DNA of 28,054 nucleotides, from the NCBI GenBank assembly GCA_027623195.1, contig JAQBUT010000032.1, positions 1 to 28,054 of the forward strand, written 5' to 3'. Position 1 is the first letter of the stretch, and each line of letters begins with the position of its first letter. Positions 1,658 through 10,251 of this stretch are shown in pieces. The translations under genes were made by a program, and so were the position numbers. This DNA is from Chloroflexota bacterium. Lineage in GTDB: Bacteria > Chloroflexota > Dehalococcoidia > Lucifugimonadales > JADFKI01. Under the pieces are notes generated by a model. It ran no database searches. It saw only the letters and a program-made list of their open reading frames with translations, and had not been told where the DNA came from.

Positions 1658-1722
1658 ATCTTGGGTCGCCTAGCTTCCGCTGACCTGATGAGTCTCGAAA
1701 GCATCTCAAGTTACGGGACCAG

Positions 1723-1809
1723 GCCGAGGTGGTGGAATTGGTAGACACGCAGCGTTGAGGGCGCTGTGGCCGCAAGGCTGTAGGAGTTCGAGTCTCCTCC
1801 TCGGCACCA
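1723..1809 (+). tRNA. tRNA-Leu (anticodon GAG)
   Basis: Acceptor stem GCCGAGG/CCTCGGC plus ACCA; anticodon arm CAGCG-TTGAGGG-CGCTG; long variable arm; GTTCGAGTC T-loop. Confidence 0.97.
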
Positions 1810-4643: not shown

Positions 4644-6194
4644 ATGCAATATCGTTCTCGGCTGGCAGGGTTTCGCATAGAGCTCTTGGCCGGACTTACC
4701 GTATCCCTGGCGCTCGTTCCGGAGGCAGTGGCCTTCGCGTTCGTAGCGGGAGTCGGCCCCCTCGTCGGCCTGTATGCGGCGTTCATCATTGGGCTTGTCA
4801 CGTCCTTAACCGGCGGACGGCCAGGAATGATCTCCGGGGCTACGGGAGCCCTTGCTGTGGTGATGGTCACGCTTGTGAGGGTTCACGGTATCGATTACCT
4901 GTTCATAACCGTCATTCTGATGGGACTCATTCAGATTGCGATTGGCGTGCTGAAATTAGGTAACCTGATACGTATGGTGTCCTACCCGGTTATGTTTGGG
5001 TTCGTCAACGGGCTGGCCATCGTCATATTCCTGGCCCAGCTAGAGAGTTTTAAGATTGAAGGCGTCGACGGCATCAAGACATGGCTGCCAATGGGTGGAA
5101 TGGGAATCATGCTCGCGCTGGTGGCCGTGACCATGGCCGTTATCTTCTTGCTGCCAAGGCTAACCAAGCGATTTCCCGCGCCGCTTGCAGGGATACTTGT
5201 TGTCTCAGCGCTGGTGATATTCATAGGCATCCCTACTACAACTGTCGGCGATATCTCCAGCATATCTGGAGGGCTGCCAGTCTTTGGCGTGCCGAATGTG
5301 CCTTTCAACTTGGAGACGGTACGAATCATCCTGCCGTATGCGTTAATCCTGGCGGGAATTGGCCTGATCGAGTCCCTGCTCACGCTTACCCTGATCGACG
5401 GTATGACGGAAACGAAAGGTCAGAAAAACCGTGAGTGTGTCGCCCAAGGCGCGGCGAATGTTGTAACGGGGTTCTTTGGCGGCATGGGCGGGTGCGCAAT
5501 GATCGGTCAGAGCATGATTAACATAAAGTCCGGCGCCAGATCGCGGGTGTCCGGAGTTGTGGCCTCGCTATTCTTGCTGGTCTTTATCCTCTTCGCCTCT
5601 CGCCTGATCGAACGGATTCCCATCGCCGCTCTCGTTGGTGTGATGTTCGTGGTGGTGGTTGGGACCATATCCTGGACCAGCTTGCGCATCATTGGGAAGG
5701 TGCCTCGGGCTGATGCGTTGGTGATGGTATTTGTTGCGGGGGTAACTGTGGCCACCGACCTGGCAATAGCAGTTATCGCCGGAGTGATTGTGTCCGCCCT
5801 GGTCTTCGCGTGGAAGACTGCGCGTTACATCTACGTTGAACCCGGTGTCTTGACCAGGCCTGACCAACGCACCTACACCCTCCACGGCCAACTCTATTTT
5901 GCCTCGGTCAGCACCTTTAATGAGTTGTTCAATCCGAGACTGGACCCGGCCGAAGTAGTGATTAATTTTCAGAACGCTCGCGTATGGGACCATTCGGGCA
6001 TGGAGGCTATCGTTGATCTAGCCCGTCGTTACGAACGCGCGGGGACGCAATTGCATCTTCTGCACCTGAGCGACGACTGCCAGGAAATGCTGCGAAAGGC
6101 CGACATCATTCTGGAGAAAGACCCTTTGGCCAGGCCGAGTTCCAGCCACCGCGTTACGGTCTCGGGGCTGGGCGGCTCCGGGGAAGGCCACTAG
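4644..6194 (+). CDS. SulP/SLC26-family anion transporter with C-terminal STAS domain
   Basis: LAGLTVSLALVPEAVAFA, GGRPGMISGATGA, GGMGGCAMIGQS; STAS-like tail (GQLYFAS...VWDHSG). Confidence 0.93.
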   Translation: MQYRSRLAGFRIELLAGLTVSLALVPEAVAFAFVAGVGPLVGLYAAFIIGLVTSLTGGRPGMISGATGALAVVMVTLVRVHGIDYLFITVILMGLIQIAIGVLKLGNLIRMVSYPVMFGFVNGLAIVIFLAQLESFKIEGVDGIKTWLPMGGMGIMLALVAVTMAVIFLLPRLTKRFPAPLAGILVVSALVIFIGIPTTTVGDISSISGGLPVFGVPNVPFNLETVRIILPYALILAGIGLIESLLTLTLIDGMTETKGQKNRECVAQGAANVVTGFFGGMGGCAMIGQSMINIKSGARSRVSGVVASLFLLVFILFASRLIERIPIAALVGVMFVVVVGTISWTSLRIIGKVPRADALVMVFVAGVTVATDLAIAVIAGVIVSALVFAWKTARYIYVEPGVLTRPDQRTYTLHGQLYFASVSTFNELFNPRLDPAEVVINFQNARVWDHSGMEAIVDLARRYERAGTQLHLLHLSDDCQEMLRKADIILEKDPLARPSSSHRVTVSGLGGSGEGH

Positions 6195-6341
6195 TCGCCA
6201 GGATTTGGGGCCGTAAATTCGGAGTAGGCTCGCTCGACTGGTGACCCTCAATATTGAAAGCCTAGCAATCCGGTAAAACATTGAAGATGAATTACATCTC
6301 CGTAGAATATTAATGTCAGACAAGTACGATCATGGAGACCT

Positions 6342-6854
6342 ATGTACACTCAAATTCTGGTTCCTTTGGACGGTTCTAGCCTTGCTGAAAGGGCTATTCC
6401 ACATGCGCAAGGGCTAGCTAAGACATATGGAGCTACCGTTCATCTGCTACAAGTAATCACGCATAATCCTTCTGGAGGTCATGCCCAGGGGGATAGTGCC
6501 GAGCCAAGGGAAGGCGTATATCGTGCAGCGCTCGCTGGTTTGGCAGGGGGCGCATCCACAGGGAATTCCTTCACGCTGGACCTGGTTCGACGGCTAAAGG
6601 AAGCTCAAATTGAGGAAGCACAGGAATATCTTGCGCATGTGGCGAGTCAATTAAAGGTCGAAGGCATAGCCGTTGAAACGCAACTGTTTGAAGGCTCACC
6701 TCACGAACAGATCGCCGAGTACGCCAAGCAGAATGGCGTTGATGTCATAGTCATGTCCACCCACGGTCATGGCGGCGTGAAGAGGCTTATCGTTGGAAGC
6801 ACTACTGACAGGGTTATCAGGTCAGGGGATATACCTGTCTTAGTTGTTACCTAA
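6342..6854 (+). CDS. Universal stress protein (UspA family)
   Basis: ILVPLDGSSLAE at the N-terminus; DVIVMSTHGHGGVKRLIVGSTTDRVI...PVLVV at the C-terminus. Confidence 0.93.
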   Translation: MYTQILVPLDGSSLAERAIPHAQGLAKTYGATVHLLQVITHNPSGGHAQGDSAEPREGVYRAALAGLAGGASTGNSFTLDLVRRLKEAQIEEAQEYLAHVASQLKVEGIAVETQLFEGSPHEQIAEYAKQNGVDVIVMSTHGHGGVKRLIVGSTTDRVIRSGDIPVLVVT

Positions 6855-7025
6855 GATTTATTATCAACCTGATCTCATCTGGCAAAGTGTGTTGTCTGAC
6901 AAAACCGCCTTACTCCGAAGGTTTGTATTACACAGGTAGATGTAACAAATATTTAACATTTTGGAAAAACTTGGGAAACATTTCTCCTCCATAATCGTAT
7001 GTAGATTACTTGGAGGGACGAACTA

Positions 7026-7124
7026 ATGGGAATTGAAGCGGTACTCGGCGGCCTTGCATTCGTAGCTCTTTTTGGCATGTGGGTTGTGCTTCCCAGCAAG
7101 ATCCGAAAGAACCAGACCAAGTAA
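7026..7124 (+). CDS. 32-aa single-pass membrane peptide MGIEAVLGGLAFVALFGMWVVLPSKIRKNQTK (absent from the ORF track)
   Basis: GGAGGG SD at 7012-7017, ATG 7026, TAA 7122-7124; a hydrophobic stretch of about 20 aa followed by a basic tail; a terminator follows. Confidence 0.7.
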   Translation: MGIEAVLGGLAFVALFGMWVVLPSKIRKNQTK

Positions 7125-7159
7125 TTATTCCATAGGCACTAGCGAATCAATAGACTTTC

Positions 7160-7199
7160 AAACACCGAGTCTTGGATTTCCAGGACTCGGTGTTTTTTG
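7160..7199. terminator. Intrinsic terminator, probably bidirectional
   Basis: Stem AAACACCGAGTCTTGGA/TCCAGGACTCGGTGTTT plus a T-run, between the convergent small ORF and the archaellin. Confidence 0.85.
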
Positions 7200-7249
7200 T
7201 TACTCCAGGATCAATATTCACCGCCTCTGGTCCAACGAGTTCTGCGAAG

Positions 7250-8341
7250 TTACTTAAGGTTCATGACCGTGCTGATCTGGCCCGGCGTTTGGCGCTGAAT
7301 GACAAGAACGCTTCCCTCCGATGGCTTGATTTCCAACGTGAACTCCGTGCTCTTTACCAGGGGAGTCGCCTGGTCGAGGCCCAAGAGGCTAACGGCTATC
7401 TCTACTCTCTCGCCCTCTTCCAACTGATCGTCGCTGTCGTCCGCGCCCACGAAGGCTTTCGTCCAGTAAAGGTCGTTTTTCAACTGGAAGTCGTCGGTGT
7501 AGCTGACCAGCACGTTGTGCCGCCTGTCCGCCGAGTCGGATATACCATCGTTGTCGGAGTCGGATGGTTCCGTGAGGTTGATAGGCTCACCCTTTACGGA
7601 GTTGGCGACCAAGACGACGATGCTGGTCACCTGTCCGCGGACTTCGACATCGTCGATGTTGATCTTCGTGCTGCTCACGGTGGATAGATCGGTGGCCACG
7701 TTGAGGCCCACGCATGCGATGGCGGAACGGGTTGTGCCGCTGCTAATTCCCACGGACACATCTTTCCATACGTTGGCAGTAAGCACAGGCAGATTGATGC
7801 TTTCCGCTACGCTGCCGCAACCTGTGGAGTCATCGATGACCAGTTGCAACTGGCCGGCCGATGTCGTCACATCAGACTTGATCCAAAAAGAGATGGATTC
7901 GTAACTGGTCAAGTCAACAGTTGGAGATATGTCCTCAGAGCCGATTAGGCCGGTGGTGAATGCGATGGCCACATCGATCTCGCTGCTAGCTGTTCCCTGC
8001 TTCTTGTCCGTTGTCTCAGAAGAAAGCGTTAGGTTCGCTCCCGGGTCGTCCCAGACGTCGTCGCCGTCATCGAGCGTGATGTCTGGCACGCCGTTGGCGA
8101 TAACAGAGCCCTTGAGCTCGATGCTTCCCCGCGCCTGTTGGAGTCCGGCGTATACAGTTTCCTTGGCGCGTTCAGCGGAGAATATACCTGTGGACAGCAC
8201 GGTGAAGGCGAATACGGAAGCGACCACGACGAACGCGATCATTATGATGGCCGTCTCCAGACCTGTTACACCCTTCTCTGATCTTTGCAGCAAATCCGTT
8301 GCCTTATTCCCAGTGCCAAAGAATCTGGCCAGTTGCTTCAT
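7250..8341 (-). CDS. Archaellin (archaeal-type flagellin, ArlB/FlaB family) with a large internal insertion
   Basis: Class III signal peptide SEKG|VTGLETAIIMIAFVVVASVFAFTVLSTGIFSAERAKETVYAGL; C-terminal archaellin features DDQLEEGERVEI, FTLEIKPSEGSVLVIQRQTP and VMNL. Confidence 0.92.
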   Translation of the reverse strand: MKQLARFFGTGNKATDLLQRSEKGVTGLETAIIMIAFVVVASVFAFTVLSTGIFSAERAKETVYAGLQQARGSIELKGSVIANGVPDITLDDGDDVWDDPGANLTLSSETTDKKQGTASSEIDVAIAFTTGLIGSEDISPTVDLTSYESISFWIKSDVTTSAGQLQLVIDDSTGCGSVAESINLPVLTANVWKDVSVGISSGTTRSAIACVGLNVATDLSTVSSTKINIDDVEVRGQVTSIVVLVANSVKGEPINLTEPSDSDNDGISDSADRRHNVLVSYTDDFQLKNDLYWTKAFVGADDSDDQLEEGERVEIAVSLLGLDQATPLVKSTEFTLEIKPSEGSVLVIQRQTPGQISTVMNLK

Positions 8342-8790
8342 GTTCGAACCCCTTTGAACCTAATTTGTGGGAGCACCCATCACCCAGGGTTACCCTGAGC
8401 GAAAGATTTTCGCCAAAGTAAATGCCTCCTCCACCCCACCGCACAACGAACACCAAATTCCATGAATTCGATGTATTCGAATAACTTATATTTAAAATTT
8501 TTGATGAGCGTTTAAACCCTTGACGTAGAAAAACATAACGAAACTGCTAGAAATAAAAGTCCGTGCGGAACGACTTGACCAGTAGCCCTCTTAGCGCGAG
8601 CTTGAAAATGCCAGGTATCCTTTCTTGTGGATACTGGGAGGGGATGGAGGTGCTGTGGTTGCCTCAGAACATCTTGAGAATGTATCGTGTTCTGCAGTCT
8701 GAAGGCTTCGAGAACGTTGCTTGTCACGACTCCCGGGTGTACGTTAATTAGAATGCGCAACTCAAAAACCATAGCCCACGCCGCCGCCGT

Positions 8791-10251
8791 TTGACGCTTC
8801 TCACCCTGGAGCCCATATCTAGGATAGCCAACAGCCCCAATTACAAGTGGTGGGTGTACTGCGCCGTCGCCGTGGGCATGTTCACCAGCGTCATGGACCA
8901 GTCCGGCACCAACATTGCCCTACCCGCCATCGCCGACTACTTTGACGCCGATATCCCCACCGTGCAGTGGGTGACCCTTAGCTACATTCTTGCGACCAGC
9001 GCTCTTTTCATGCCAGCCGGACGTCTCTCCGACATCGTTGGTCGTAAGTACGTGTTCATGGGAGGGCTGGCCATGTTCGCAATAGCGGCGGCCATAGGGG
9101 GAAGCTCCACGTCGTTCCCTCTGCTGGTCATGGCGAAGATCCTTCAAGGGGTAGCGTCGGCTGGCATAGGCGCCAATGGTATGGCGATGGTTGCCGAGAT
9201 ATTCCCGGAGCGCGAGCGCGGCAAGGCCCTGGGTTTTTACATGACCATCATAGGCGTCGGGGTTATCATGGGCCCAGTAGTAGGCGGCTTTCTTGTGGAC
9301 ATGCTGGGATGGCGCGCGGTCTTCTTTGCTGTGGTGCCCATGGGAGTATTCGCGCTGTTGGCTGCTGCCCTAGTGCTTCGTACCGGCAAAAGACAAGCCA
9401 CCGTTGCAAGGCCTTCCACGGGATTCGATTGGGGCGGTGCGGGTCTGTCATCGGCGGCGCTGGTCGCATTCCTGTTGTCGCTAACCAACGCTCACAAATT
9501 AGGTTGGTCGTCGCCTGCAATAATTGGAGGCTTCCTGCTGGCGTTTGCGCTGATAGGAGCCTTCGTGTGGTGGGAGAAGCGCAGCCCTGACCCAATGCTG
9601 GACCTGCGCTATTTCGAGAGCGGTGCGTTTTCCATGGGGGTGGCTGCCAGGTTCTTCTCCTTTTTAGGAAGCTCCTCGGTGTTCTTCCTTATGCCATTCT
9701 TCCTGGTGCAGGGACTGCTGTACTCCCCTAGCAAGGCTGGGCTATTCATGGTGCCAAGCGCAATTGGCATGGCTGTCATGGGGCCGGTGAGCGGACGCCT
9801 ATCCGATAAGTTTGGCACGAGGTGGCTGTCGGTAGGTGGAATGGGAATTTCCACCATAGCGTTCGTAATCTTCTCCAGGCTTTCTATCGACGCGTCTGCG
9901 GCACACGTCTTGCTGGGGATGACATTGCAGGGCATAGGTATGGGTATGTTCTCATCGCCCAACACCAGTTCTGTCATGAGCTCCCTCGATAAGGAGAACT
10001 ACGGCATTGCGTCGGCGTTCCTGAACACGACGCGCACATCGGCCAACCTCAGCGGTGTGGCGCTGGCAACGTCCATCGTTACTATTACCATGGCGACAAT
10101 GGGTTTCGAGCCCAGCCTGTCTGCGGTATCGGCAGGCGGAGGGGACGGAGTCAGAATAGCCTTCGTCACGGGCCTGAGCCGTGCGTTCCTGTTGTCAGGA
10201 ATTTTCGTGTTCTTGTCTTCGGCTATTTCGGTCGTTCGGCGGTCCGGCTAG
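8791..10251 (+). CDS. MFS drug-resistance transporter, DHA2 (14-TMS, EmrB/QacA-like)
   Basis: D-x-S-x-x-NIALPAI, motif A (GRLSDIVGRK), FPERERGKALG, GPVVGGFL, LGWRAVFF, FDWGG. The TTG start is uncertain. Confidence 0.92.
   Translation: MTLLTLEPISRIANSPNYKWWVYCAVAVGMFTSVMDQSGTNIALPAIADYFDADIPTVQWVTLSYILATSALFMPAGRLSDIVGRKYVFMGGLAMFAIAAAIGGSSTSFPLLVMAKILQGVASAGIGANGMAMVAEIFPERERGKALGFYMTIIGVGVIMGPVVGGFLVDMLGWRAVFFAVVPMGVFALLAAALVLRTGKRQATVARPSTGFDWGGAGLSSAALVAFLLSLTNAHKLGWSSPAIIGGFLLAFALIGAFVWWEKRSPDPMLDLRYFESGAFSMGVAARFFSFLGSSSVFFLMPFFLVQGLLYSPSKAGLFMVPSAIGMAVMGPVSGRLSDKFGTRWLSVGGMGISTIAFVIFSRLSIDASAAHVLLGMTLQGIGMGMFSSPNTSSVMSSLDKENYGIASAFLNTTRTSANLSGVALATSIVTITMATMGFEPSLSAVSAGGGDGVRIAFVTGLSRAFLLSGIFVFLSSAISVVRRSG

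Follow-up and report, generated by a model that had tools for sequence, protein, structure and literature searches.

What is the stretch of about 150 residues that interrupts the archaellin of this Chloroflexota bacterium, and what might it do on a filament? The question is raised by a window of 28,054 nucleotides (the whole stretch of DNA that was analysed), in which the archaellin gene arlB (7250..8341, minus strand) encodes a protein of 363 aa. The product matches the Pfam archaellin family Arch_flagellin (ArlB, PF01917) at E 4.2e-17, scoring above the Pfam cut-off, and arlB is the sole archaellin match in the window's assembly (G000). An earlier note on this DNA had described a 363-aa protein with an insert of about 150 residues, which ORF translation and alignment with the Litorilinea aerophila archaellin (9i5h) confirmed; it had missed that the host is a bacterium, and that archaellins with outer domains had been published before (PMC13357602). 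Archaella in Chloroflexota have already been published (PMC12488501 and PMC10444878, both available in part). Within Dehalococcoidia, we infer the host lineage to be SAR202.

The gene and its archaellin core

The arlB copy stands alone, not part of an arl operon, with usp on one side and an MFS transporter gene on the other. A hairpin of 16 pairs followed by a T-run (7160..7195, no strand assigned) lies 55 nt beyond the arlB stop and is also found in the relative G025, while hairpins with a T-run were found at 2 sites against 1.9 expected in shuffles, a count that is not significant by itself. The hairpin 3' of arlB is likely a terminator, so that arlB is likely monocistronic. Contigs of four runs were compared against 5800-9800. 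One contig of run X1, possibly the source run, spans this region, and contigs of two runs from a different study cover the gene unbroken (X3, 5800-8237; X5, 5800-8974), differing from arlB by five listed substitutions, three of them synonymous, with no frameshifts. The runs containing the DNA are labelled aquatic and estuary metagenome, and none of those listed is an RNA run. An origin of the insert by frameshift or mis-assembly was rejected, as the insert is present in all 120 top homologues and independent contigs cover the gene; a recent foreign insertion was rejected on GC content, which is 0.556 inside the insert and 0.557 outside.

The ArlB sequence opens with a class III (prepilin-like) leader (residues 1-24; 8270..8341, minus strand), having a K/R-G site with cleavage predicted after K23-G24 and a glutamate at +5 (E29), and V25 aligns with the first residue of the mature L. 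aerophila chain. The hydrophobic N-terminal helix and first core strand follow (residues 25-85; 8087..8269, minus strand); they were modelled as helix 26-70 and strand 80-85 and are near-invariant in the homologue set, which comprised the best 120 of 3,312 proteins at E <=0.001. Beyond the insert, the C-terminal part of the archaellin Ig-like domain (residues 237-363; 7253..7633, minus strand) contains an Asp-rich loop (residues 259-272; 7526..7567, minus strand), in which P259 and D269 are invariant among the best 120 homologues. The archaellin metal-binding residues, identified by sequence as D302, D304, E308 and E311 (7409..7438, minus strand) align with L. aerophila D121, D123/D127, E131 and E134 (PMC12488501, available in part) and are kept in 118, 118, 120 and 120 of the best 120 homologues.

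The 9i5h chain aligns in two pieces, query 25-84 with its residues 1-60 and query 235-362 with its residues 66-182, leaving about 150 residues unmatched in place of a five-residue loop. The break after GSVIANG (ending at residue 84) and the resumption at GQVTSIVVLV (starting at 236) given in the earlier note were borne out, and all of the insert motifs that it quoted are present in the translation. Its span of 7637..8083 (residues 87-235) was close; the alignment places the insert at about residues 86-236 (7634..8086, minus strand). The full-length model (mean pLDDT 86.9, insert blocks 91-96) completes the core after the insert, and the core, as aligned, is intact around it. The residue at which the core resumes aligns with L. 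aerophila T66, where cryo-EM density was read as an O-glycan, making it a probable O-glycan site (PMC12488501, available in part). This numbering fits because D121, D127, E131, E134 and T145 land on those letters in the alignment. As the core resumes at a probable glycan-bearing position, the insertion loop should lie on the outside.

Predicted fold of the insert

Modelled alone, the insert reached a mean pLDDT of 95.5 and formed ten strands arranged as a two-sheet beta jelly roll with adjacent termini. In a Foldseek search, CBM30 ranked first (E 1.6e-6), with CBM11, CBM59 and CBM22 also at the top. The top rows of a ranking by Z tie, namely CBM59 at 14.2 (rmsd 2.9, 140 aligned), CIA30/NDUFAF1 at 14.0, CBM8 and CBM11 at 13.9 each, CBM30 at 13.7 and the HFTV1 turret at 13.5; spirochete FlaA1 scores 11.8. 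The insert is thus predicted to be a galactose-binding domain-like jelly roll, as the earlier note had proposed in calling it CBM11/CIA30-like, and the structure prediction and Foldseek comparison that the note advised placed jelly-roll folds (CBM30, CBM11, CBM59, CIA30) at the top. Identities to the fold matches are only 11-18%, which allows a fold to be assigned but not a family.

Membership of CBM11 was rejected, the insert alone matching Pfam CBM_11 (PF03425) at E 3.7e-4 and 21 bits, below the 27-bit cut-off, and the whole protein reaching 19.2 bits. Matches to CBM_11 at E <=0.1 were obtained for 18 of 117 homologues, the best at 1.1e-6; a precomputed CBM_11 label was attached to three of the 120 best homologues; and no CBM11 chain matched the insert by sequence search. 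Membership of CIA30/NDUFAF1 or FlaA was rejected for want of a Pfam match. The domain family of the insert is unnamed and falls outside Pfam coverage at the cut-off. We know of no sugar binding by CIA30/NDUFAF1.

CBMs generally line a cleft with exposed aromatic residues. The insert has six aromatics in 151 residues and a net charge of -17; F128 is kept, and the tyrosine found at position 135 in 83% of the family, its most frequent aromatic outside the core, is a serine in the window's insert. Three tryptophans, W97, W153 and W192, occur in 119 of the 120 best homologues and are kept in all host proteins of the domain, and they likely belong to its core.

The only two cysteines of the protein, C175 (7817-7819) and C210 (7712-7714; together 7712..7819, minus strand), which the earlier note had offered as possible disulfide partners, are both conserved in 120 of 120 best homologues and likely form a disulfide. 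The distribution of the pair would fit a disulfide acquired once the domain was part of an exported protein, the two residues being present in 120 of 132 inserts at the same site (site A), in none of seven inserts at a second site (site B), and in none of 128 phage adaptor-like or six beta-helix copies of the domain. D94, G116 and D230 (7652..8062, minus strand; D230 in 120/120 and G116 in 118/120) likely form a structural calcium site of the jelly roll, by analogy with CBM4, CBM6, CBM11 and CBM22 folds and with FlaA1 (PMC12889604, available in part).

Probable display on the filament and putative attachment

We propose that ArlB is an archaellin bearing, in the loop that follows its first core strand, a 151-residue, phage-shared jelly roll that likely projects as a knob and, in many copies, would attach weakly to glycan surfaces; binding is putative, and we regard this reading as evenly poised between right and wrong. 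After leader cleavage, the helices would pack into a normal archaellum core, and the adjacent ends of the insert would let the domain hang outside the filament, where calcium and the disulfide would stabilise it. Avidity could then make even a poor site useful for holding particles, cells or own-cell glycans, as in accessory CBMs on phage tails. Counting towards attachment, in an assessment that comes out level, are the fold, the surface position, the display on the main subunit in some species, the presence of the family on phage necks, tubes and fibres, where lactococcal phages use CBMs to bind their hosts (PMC6669499), and the precedent of FlaA (PMC12889604). On the other side of the balance stand the six aromatics in 151 residues, the serine in place of Tyr135, the net charge of -17, the tie of CIA30 with the CBMs and the sub-cut-off CBM_11 score, to which, with the scales still level, we add that no surface motif is common across host proteins, that the arl machinery found in G000 is incomplete and that cultured SAR202 cells showed no archaella (PMC10444878).

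The outward display foreseen in the earlier note was upheld as regards the surface loop, by the 9i5h alignment and the O-glycan site; the fit on the filament comes from a rough estimate with spheres placed, undocked, on the Litorilinea helix (rise 5.64 Å). By this estimate, domains of 33 Å would stand 47-50 Å apart without clashes, at about 1,770 per micron, covering approximately a third of the surface and widening the filament from 11-12 to about 14-19 nm.

The same geometry bears on a rather unlikely alternative, in which the insert is a structural coat without external ligand that thickens, stiffens or shields the filament and replaces the loop glycan of other archaellins, a role that has been proposed for the Haloarcula D2 sheath. 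The insertion point at the probable O-glycan site of L. aerophila (PMC12488501) agrees with a coat, as do the few aromatics, the acidic surface, the added Cys pair and the position of CIA30 level with the CBMs in the Z ranking, and the outer domains of H. marismortui are described as forming a sheath that alters filament mechanics (PMC13357602, available in part). However, domains about 33 Å wide and 47-50 Å apart need not touch in the rough sphere estimate, and the occurrence of the family on unrelated phage proteins of differing geometry points to a self-contained module rather than a lattice former. Attachment remains our preferred reading.

Spread among archaellins and two insertion sites

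The insert is present in all of the best 120 homologues, with C175, C210, P185, G212 and D230 invariant, and the named ones among them are Chloroflexi or SAR202; the nearest titled genome record, a Dehalococcoidia bacterium (L183), is 75% identical over the insert. The Atlas cluster of the whole protein has 231 members, which are bacterial, with Chloroflexota commonest. Of 401 evenly sampled Dehalococcoidia genomes, 91 matched Pfam Arch_flagellin, a profile that also matches ArlF/G and so counts those too, and 21 matched an insert profile built partly from the Dehalococcoidia sequences against which it was run. By locus, 11 of these 21 carry the domain in an archaellin and 10 in other proteins. 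The window's insert as sole query matched 17 of the 401 genomes at 26-43% identity, and 12 of 251 genomes matched in an order-level sample and five of 401 in a phylum sample, one of the five outside the class.

The survey of homologues recommended in the earlier note recovered plain, site-A, site-B and two-copy archaellins. Site A is that of the window, and site B is some 40 residues nearer the C-terminus, in the loop that follows IDLTPPY; this loop is equivalent to the Asp-rich loop 259-272 and holds the insert in other Dehalococcoidia archaellins. The domain occurs twice, tandem or nested, in some archaellins of 500-530 aa; among four examples of 500-528 aa (P0026, P0033, P0035, P0123), one copy lies inside the other in P0026 and P0033. 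Ahead of several site-B archaellins lies a degenerate archaellin-like gene whose N-terminus is atypical (L058:6712-7254, L060:5021-5638, L069:10506-11048, L070:10226-10786, L093:471-1079), which suggests a dedicated minor-subunit pair.

A core tree was built from 37 archaellin sequences stripped of any insert (19 plain, 16 site A, two site B), from which near-duplicates had been dropped, five site-B proteins had been lost at the coverage filter, and plain archaellins came only from loci adjoining insert-bearing genes. Its starred branches require at least four changes of insert state, of which gains and losses are not separable, and a single insert-bearing clade was rejected (p-AU 0.0005). Compared with the copies of three relatives, the insert has a dN/dS of 0.09-0.19, with dS near saturation, which indicates purifying selection and not fast diversification.

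No archaellin other than the insert-bearing one was found in G026 or G971, where it heads an arlCDE-G-F-H-I-J cluster. Two insert-bearing archaellins in G024 head the two halves of its cluster; this cluster is split (L013, L014), each half having its own arlB and arlCDE, with G, F and J in one and H and I in the other. These three assemblies are 88-90% complete. The insert-bearing archaellin adjoins plain paralogues in G230, G060, G781, G863 and others. Complete arl clusters occur in G026, G971, G781 and G863.

The same domain in phages and other proteins

Outside archaellins, the closest relatives of the domain are virion proteins, several of them in Dehalococcoidia prophages. A prophage (L062) that includes portal, head, adaptor, terminator and tape measure genes has two major tail proteins in tandem, the second of which contains the domain, and viral contig L182 shows this arrangement too; at both loci a plain major tail protein gene is followed by a copy fused to the jelly roll (L062:9624-10810, L182:5190-6633). 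It further occurs in an adaptor-like protein family of about 420 aa, for which two of five tested members (P0164, P0176) pass the Pfam SU10_adaptor cut-off and two shorter or longer prophage relatives fall below it. This family was present in all 80 viral loci kept of 114 found, lies downstream of the major head protein in L119, and is also found in Dehalococcoidia genomes (L063, L064). Other copies are in a tail-region protein two genes after Dit (prophage L184) and in beta-helix proteins of 800-1,050 aa, and a 783-aa beta-helix protein of Methanosarcina virus MetMV carries the domain at profile E 9.6e-34; the top BFVD match (TM 0.87, 24% identity), being of the same length, is probably this protein. 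Pilin-like (DUF7305) and BACON-split PilN-like proteins of Dehalococcoidia also contain the domain (L029:880-2718, L086:958-2679, L030:544-2397).

The window's insert is up to 40% identical to phage copies; as a single query it retrieved no viral contig and only one named phage-collection record, and a genome search found no other copy in G000. Site-A inserts average 4.7% aromatics against 7.9-8.5% in phage copies. Archaellin copies differ from phage copies at the positions likely to lie on the surface, and therefore no shared ligand site is evident. In a domain tree of 51 of the 282 domain sequences, 26 of 48 inner branches are open, leaving the deep order unsettled, and a single archaellin clade was rejected only marginally (p-AU 0.043). 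The module has likely been exchanged between archaellins and the phage pool, in a direction that the tree does not give.

This kinship could also point to phage defence, with a phage-derived adsorption module masking the archaellum as a receptor or competing with phages for a cell-surface glycan recognised by phage copies. The nearest relatives being virion proteins is compatible with such a role, the changes of insert state (at least four on the core tree) look as they would under shifting selection, and a switch of archaellin has been put forward as a protection against phages (PMC13357602, available in part). We nevertheless consider defence very improbable, since the insert is under purifying selection, its likely surface residues differ from those of phage copies, and the viral contigs carry no host assignment. 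A bolder form of the attachment proposal, which we consider somewhat doubtful, is that Dehalococcoidia, after acquiring the archaellum from archaea, repeatedly captured a phage-virion adhesion module into two loops of the main subunit, yielding a rotating filament whose coat of lectin-like domains, about 1,800 per micron, grips glycan particles or cells. If true, this would be a motility organelle built from archaeal and viral parts in slow-growing aquatic bacteria.

Archaellum machinery in this genome

Relative to G024, contig C31 of G000 lacks about 8.3 kb, comprising the 5' half of arlI, arlH, arlCDE and an arlB, with the junction near G000:C31:5041-5048 (L002:1806-1809), so that arlI is truncated. 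By the same comparison, a second cluster (arlB, CDE, G, F, J) would fall between the ends of C17 and C55. Searches of G000, which is 87% complete and has this second arl locus between two contig ends, gave no ArlJ, ArlH, ArlG or prepilin peptidase. The C31 junction is crossed only by an X1 contig, X2 not covering the region, while X3 and X5 contigs break exactly there and extend into the Walker A motif of arlI and the adjoining gene. The deletion is therefore strain-level, arlI likely being retained in the species as a whole. A deeper X1 contig has a loose end at L002:2405, which suggests a second arrangement in the same sample. The motor was likely lost in the window's strain, and the stand-alone arlB is likely a spare or a remnant.

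Stand-alone insert-bearing copies were found in five genomes that are 86-98% complete (G000, G025, G083, G986, G990). ArlI is absent or truncated in each of them, and an ArlJ query, run without a positive control genome, gave no match. Scattered flaB copies are known in SAR202, and no archaella were observed on cultured SAR202 cells according to the available part of PMC10444878. Such copies might act free of a motor, as membrane-anchored or pilus-borne binding proteins resembling the sugar-binding proteins of the archaeal bindosome. The absence of ArlJ matches and of whole ArlI alongside an insert-bearing copy in all five genomes would agree with this, as would the frame being open in G000, G083, G990 and one G986 copy, and binding proteins with class III leaders occur widely among archaea (PMC13705601, available in part). 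We nonetheless judge motor-free action quite improbable, given that the frames of G025 and the second G986 copy are split, as in decay; that the conspecific X3/X5 populations reach the arlI Walker A motif, making motor loss recent; that no prepilin peptidase was found in G000; and that the ArlJ search had no positive control.

A stand-alone 389-aa protein encoded elsewhere in the assembly (G000:C30:18688-19857; L186:1189-2358) has about 210 residues beyond its first 176, with no Pfam match at E 0.01; those first 176 are ArlF-like (31-35% identity).

Comparison with known systems

The L. aerophila ArlB has a mature subunit of 183 aa that lacks the insert, and the main text of PMC12488501 makes no mention of carbohydrate, CBM, insert or jelly. 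Haloarcula marismortui ArlA2/ArlB likewise carry an outer domain in the archaellin globular domain, connected by two linkers, and form a thicker filament; this D2 and four further archaeal examples make outer domains in archaellins known (PMC13357602, available in part). By description, D2 is a bilobed double beta-sandwich that dimerises on the filament, whereas the window's insert is predicted to be a single jelly roll. A CBM fold on a motility filament has a precedent in the spirochete FlaA1/FlaA2 (9cyn), which bind O-glycans of the bacterial flagellin core (PMC12889604, available in part); these are separate periplasmic sheath proteins, whereas here the domain is fused into the archaellin. 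In lactococcal phages, CBMs bind the hosts, and accessory CBMs on major tail proteins, neck passage structures and evolved Dits are a portable binding-module fold grafted onto repeated virion proteins (PMC6669499, available in part). The window's domain family occupies such virion positions, an analogy in position with the lactococcal CBMs. Compared with CBM11, CBM30, CBM59, CBM8 and CIA30/NDUFAF1, the insert is 11-18% identical, scores below the family cut-offs, is poor in aromatics and is not joined to an enzyme. Glycan-binding minor pilins have reportedly been described in one published study.

Outer domains as such are already published (PMC13357602, available in part), and the CBM-fold insert and its phage kinship appear new. 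The available text of two reviews (PMC10334743, PMC13705601) does not mention a CBM-like archaellin; neither an archaellin insert with a CBM fold nor its link to phage proteins turned up in a literature search that covers subscription papers thinly, and no accessory phage CBM was reported there in a cellular motility filament. The outer domains in a structure paper of 2026 lacked a recognisable fold, and that paper called their purpose and the function of large archaellins unknown (PMC13357602, available in part); the present insert is an outer domain with a recognisable, predicted binding-module fold. Natural controls (0, 1 or 2 copies, two loops, the same operons) and a small expressible domain make adhesion versus mechanics directly testable. 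Through one unnamed domain family, the surfaces of SAR202-type bacteria are connected with those of their phages, and the finding is relevant to the ways in which bacteria so abundant in aquatic habitats might gain access to particulate carbon.

Other features of the window

Convergent with arlB, a hydrophobic 32-aa ORF (7026-7124, plus strand) has a strong ribosome-binding site; a second copy, 84% identical, lies at G000:C48:1423-1518, with similar DNA in relatives. At about 1722-1805 (plus strand), the antisense of a listed ORF resembles a tRNA-Leu gene and may be one.
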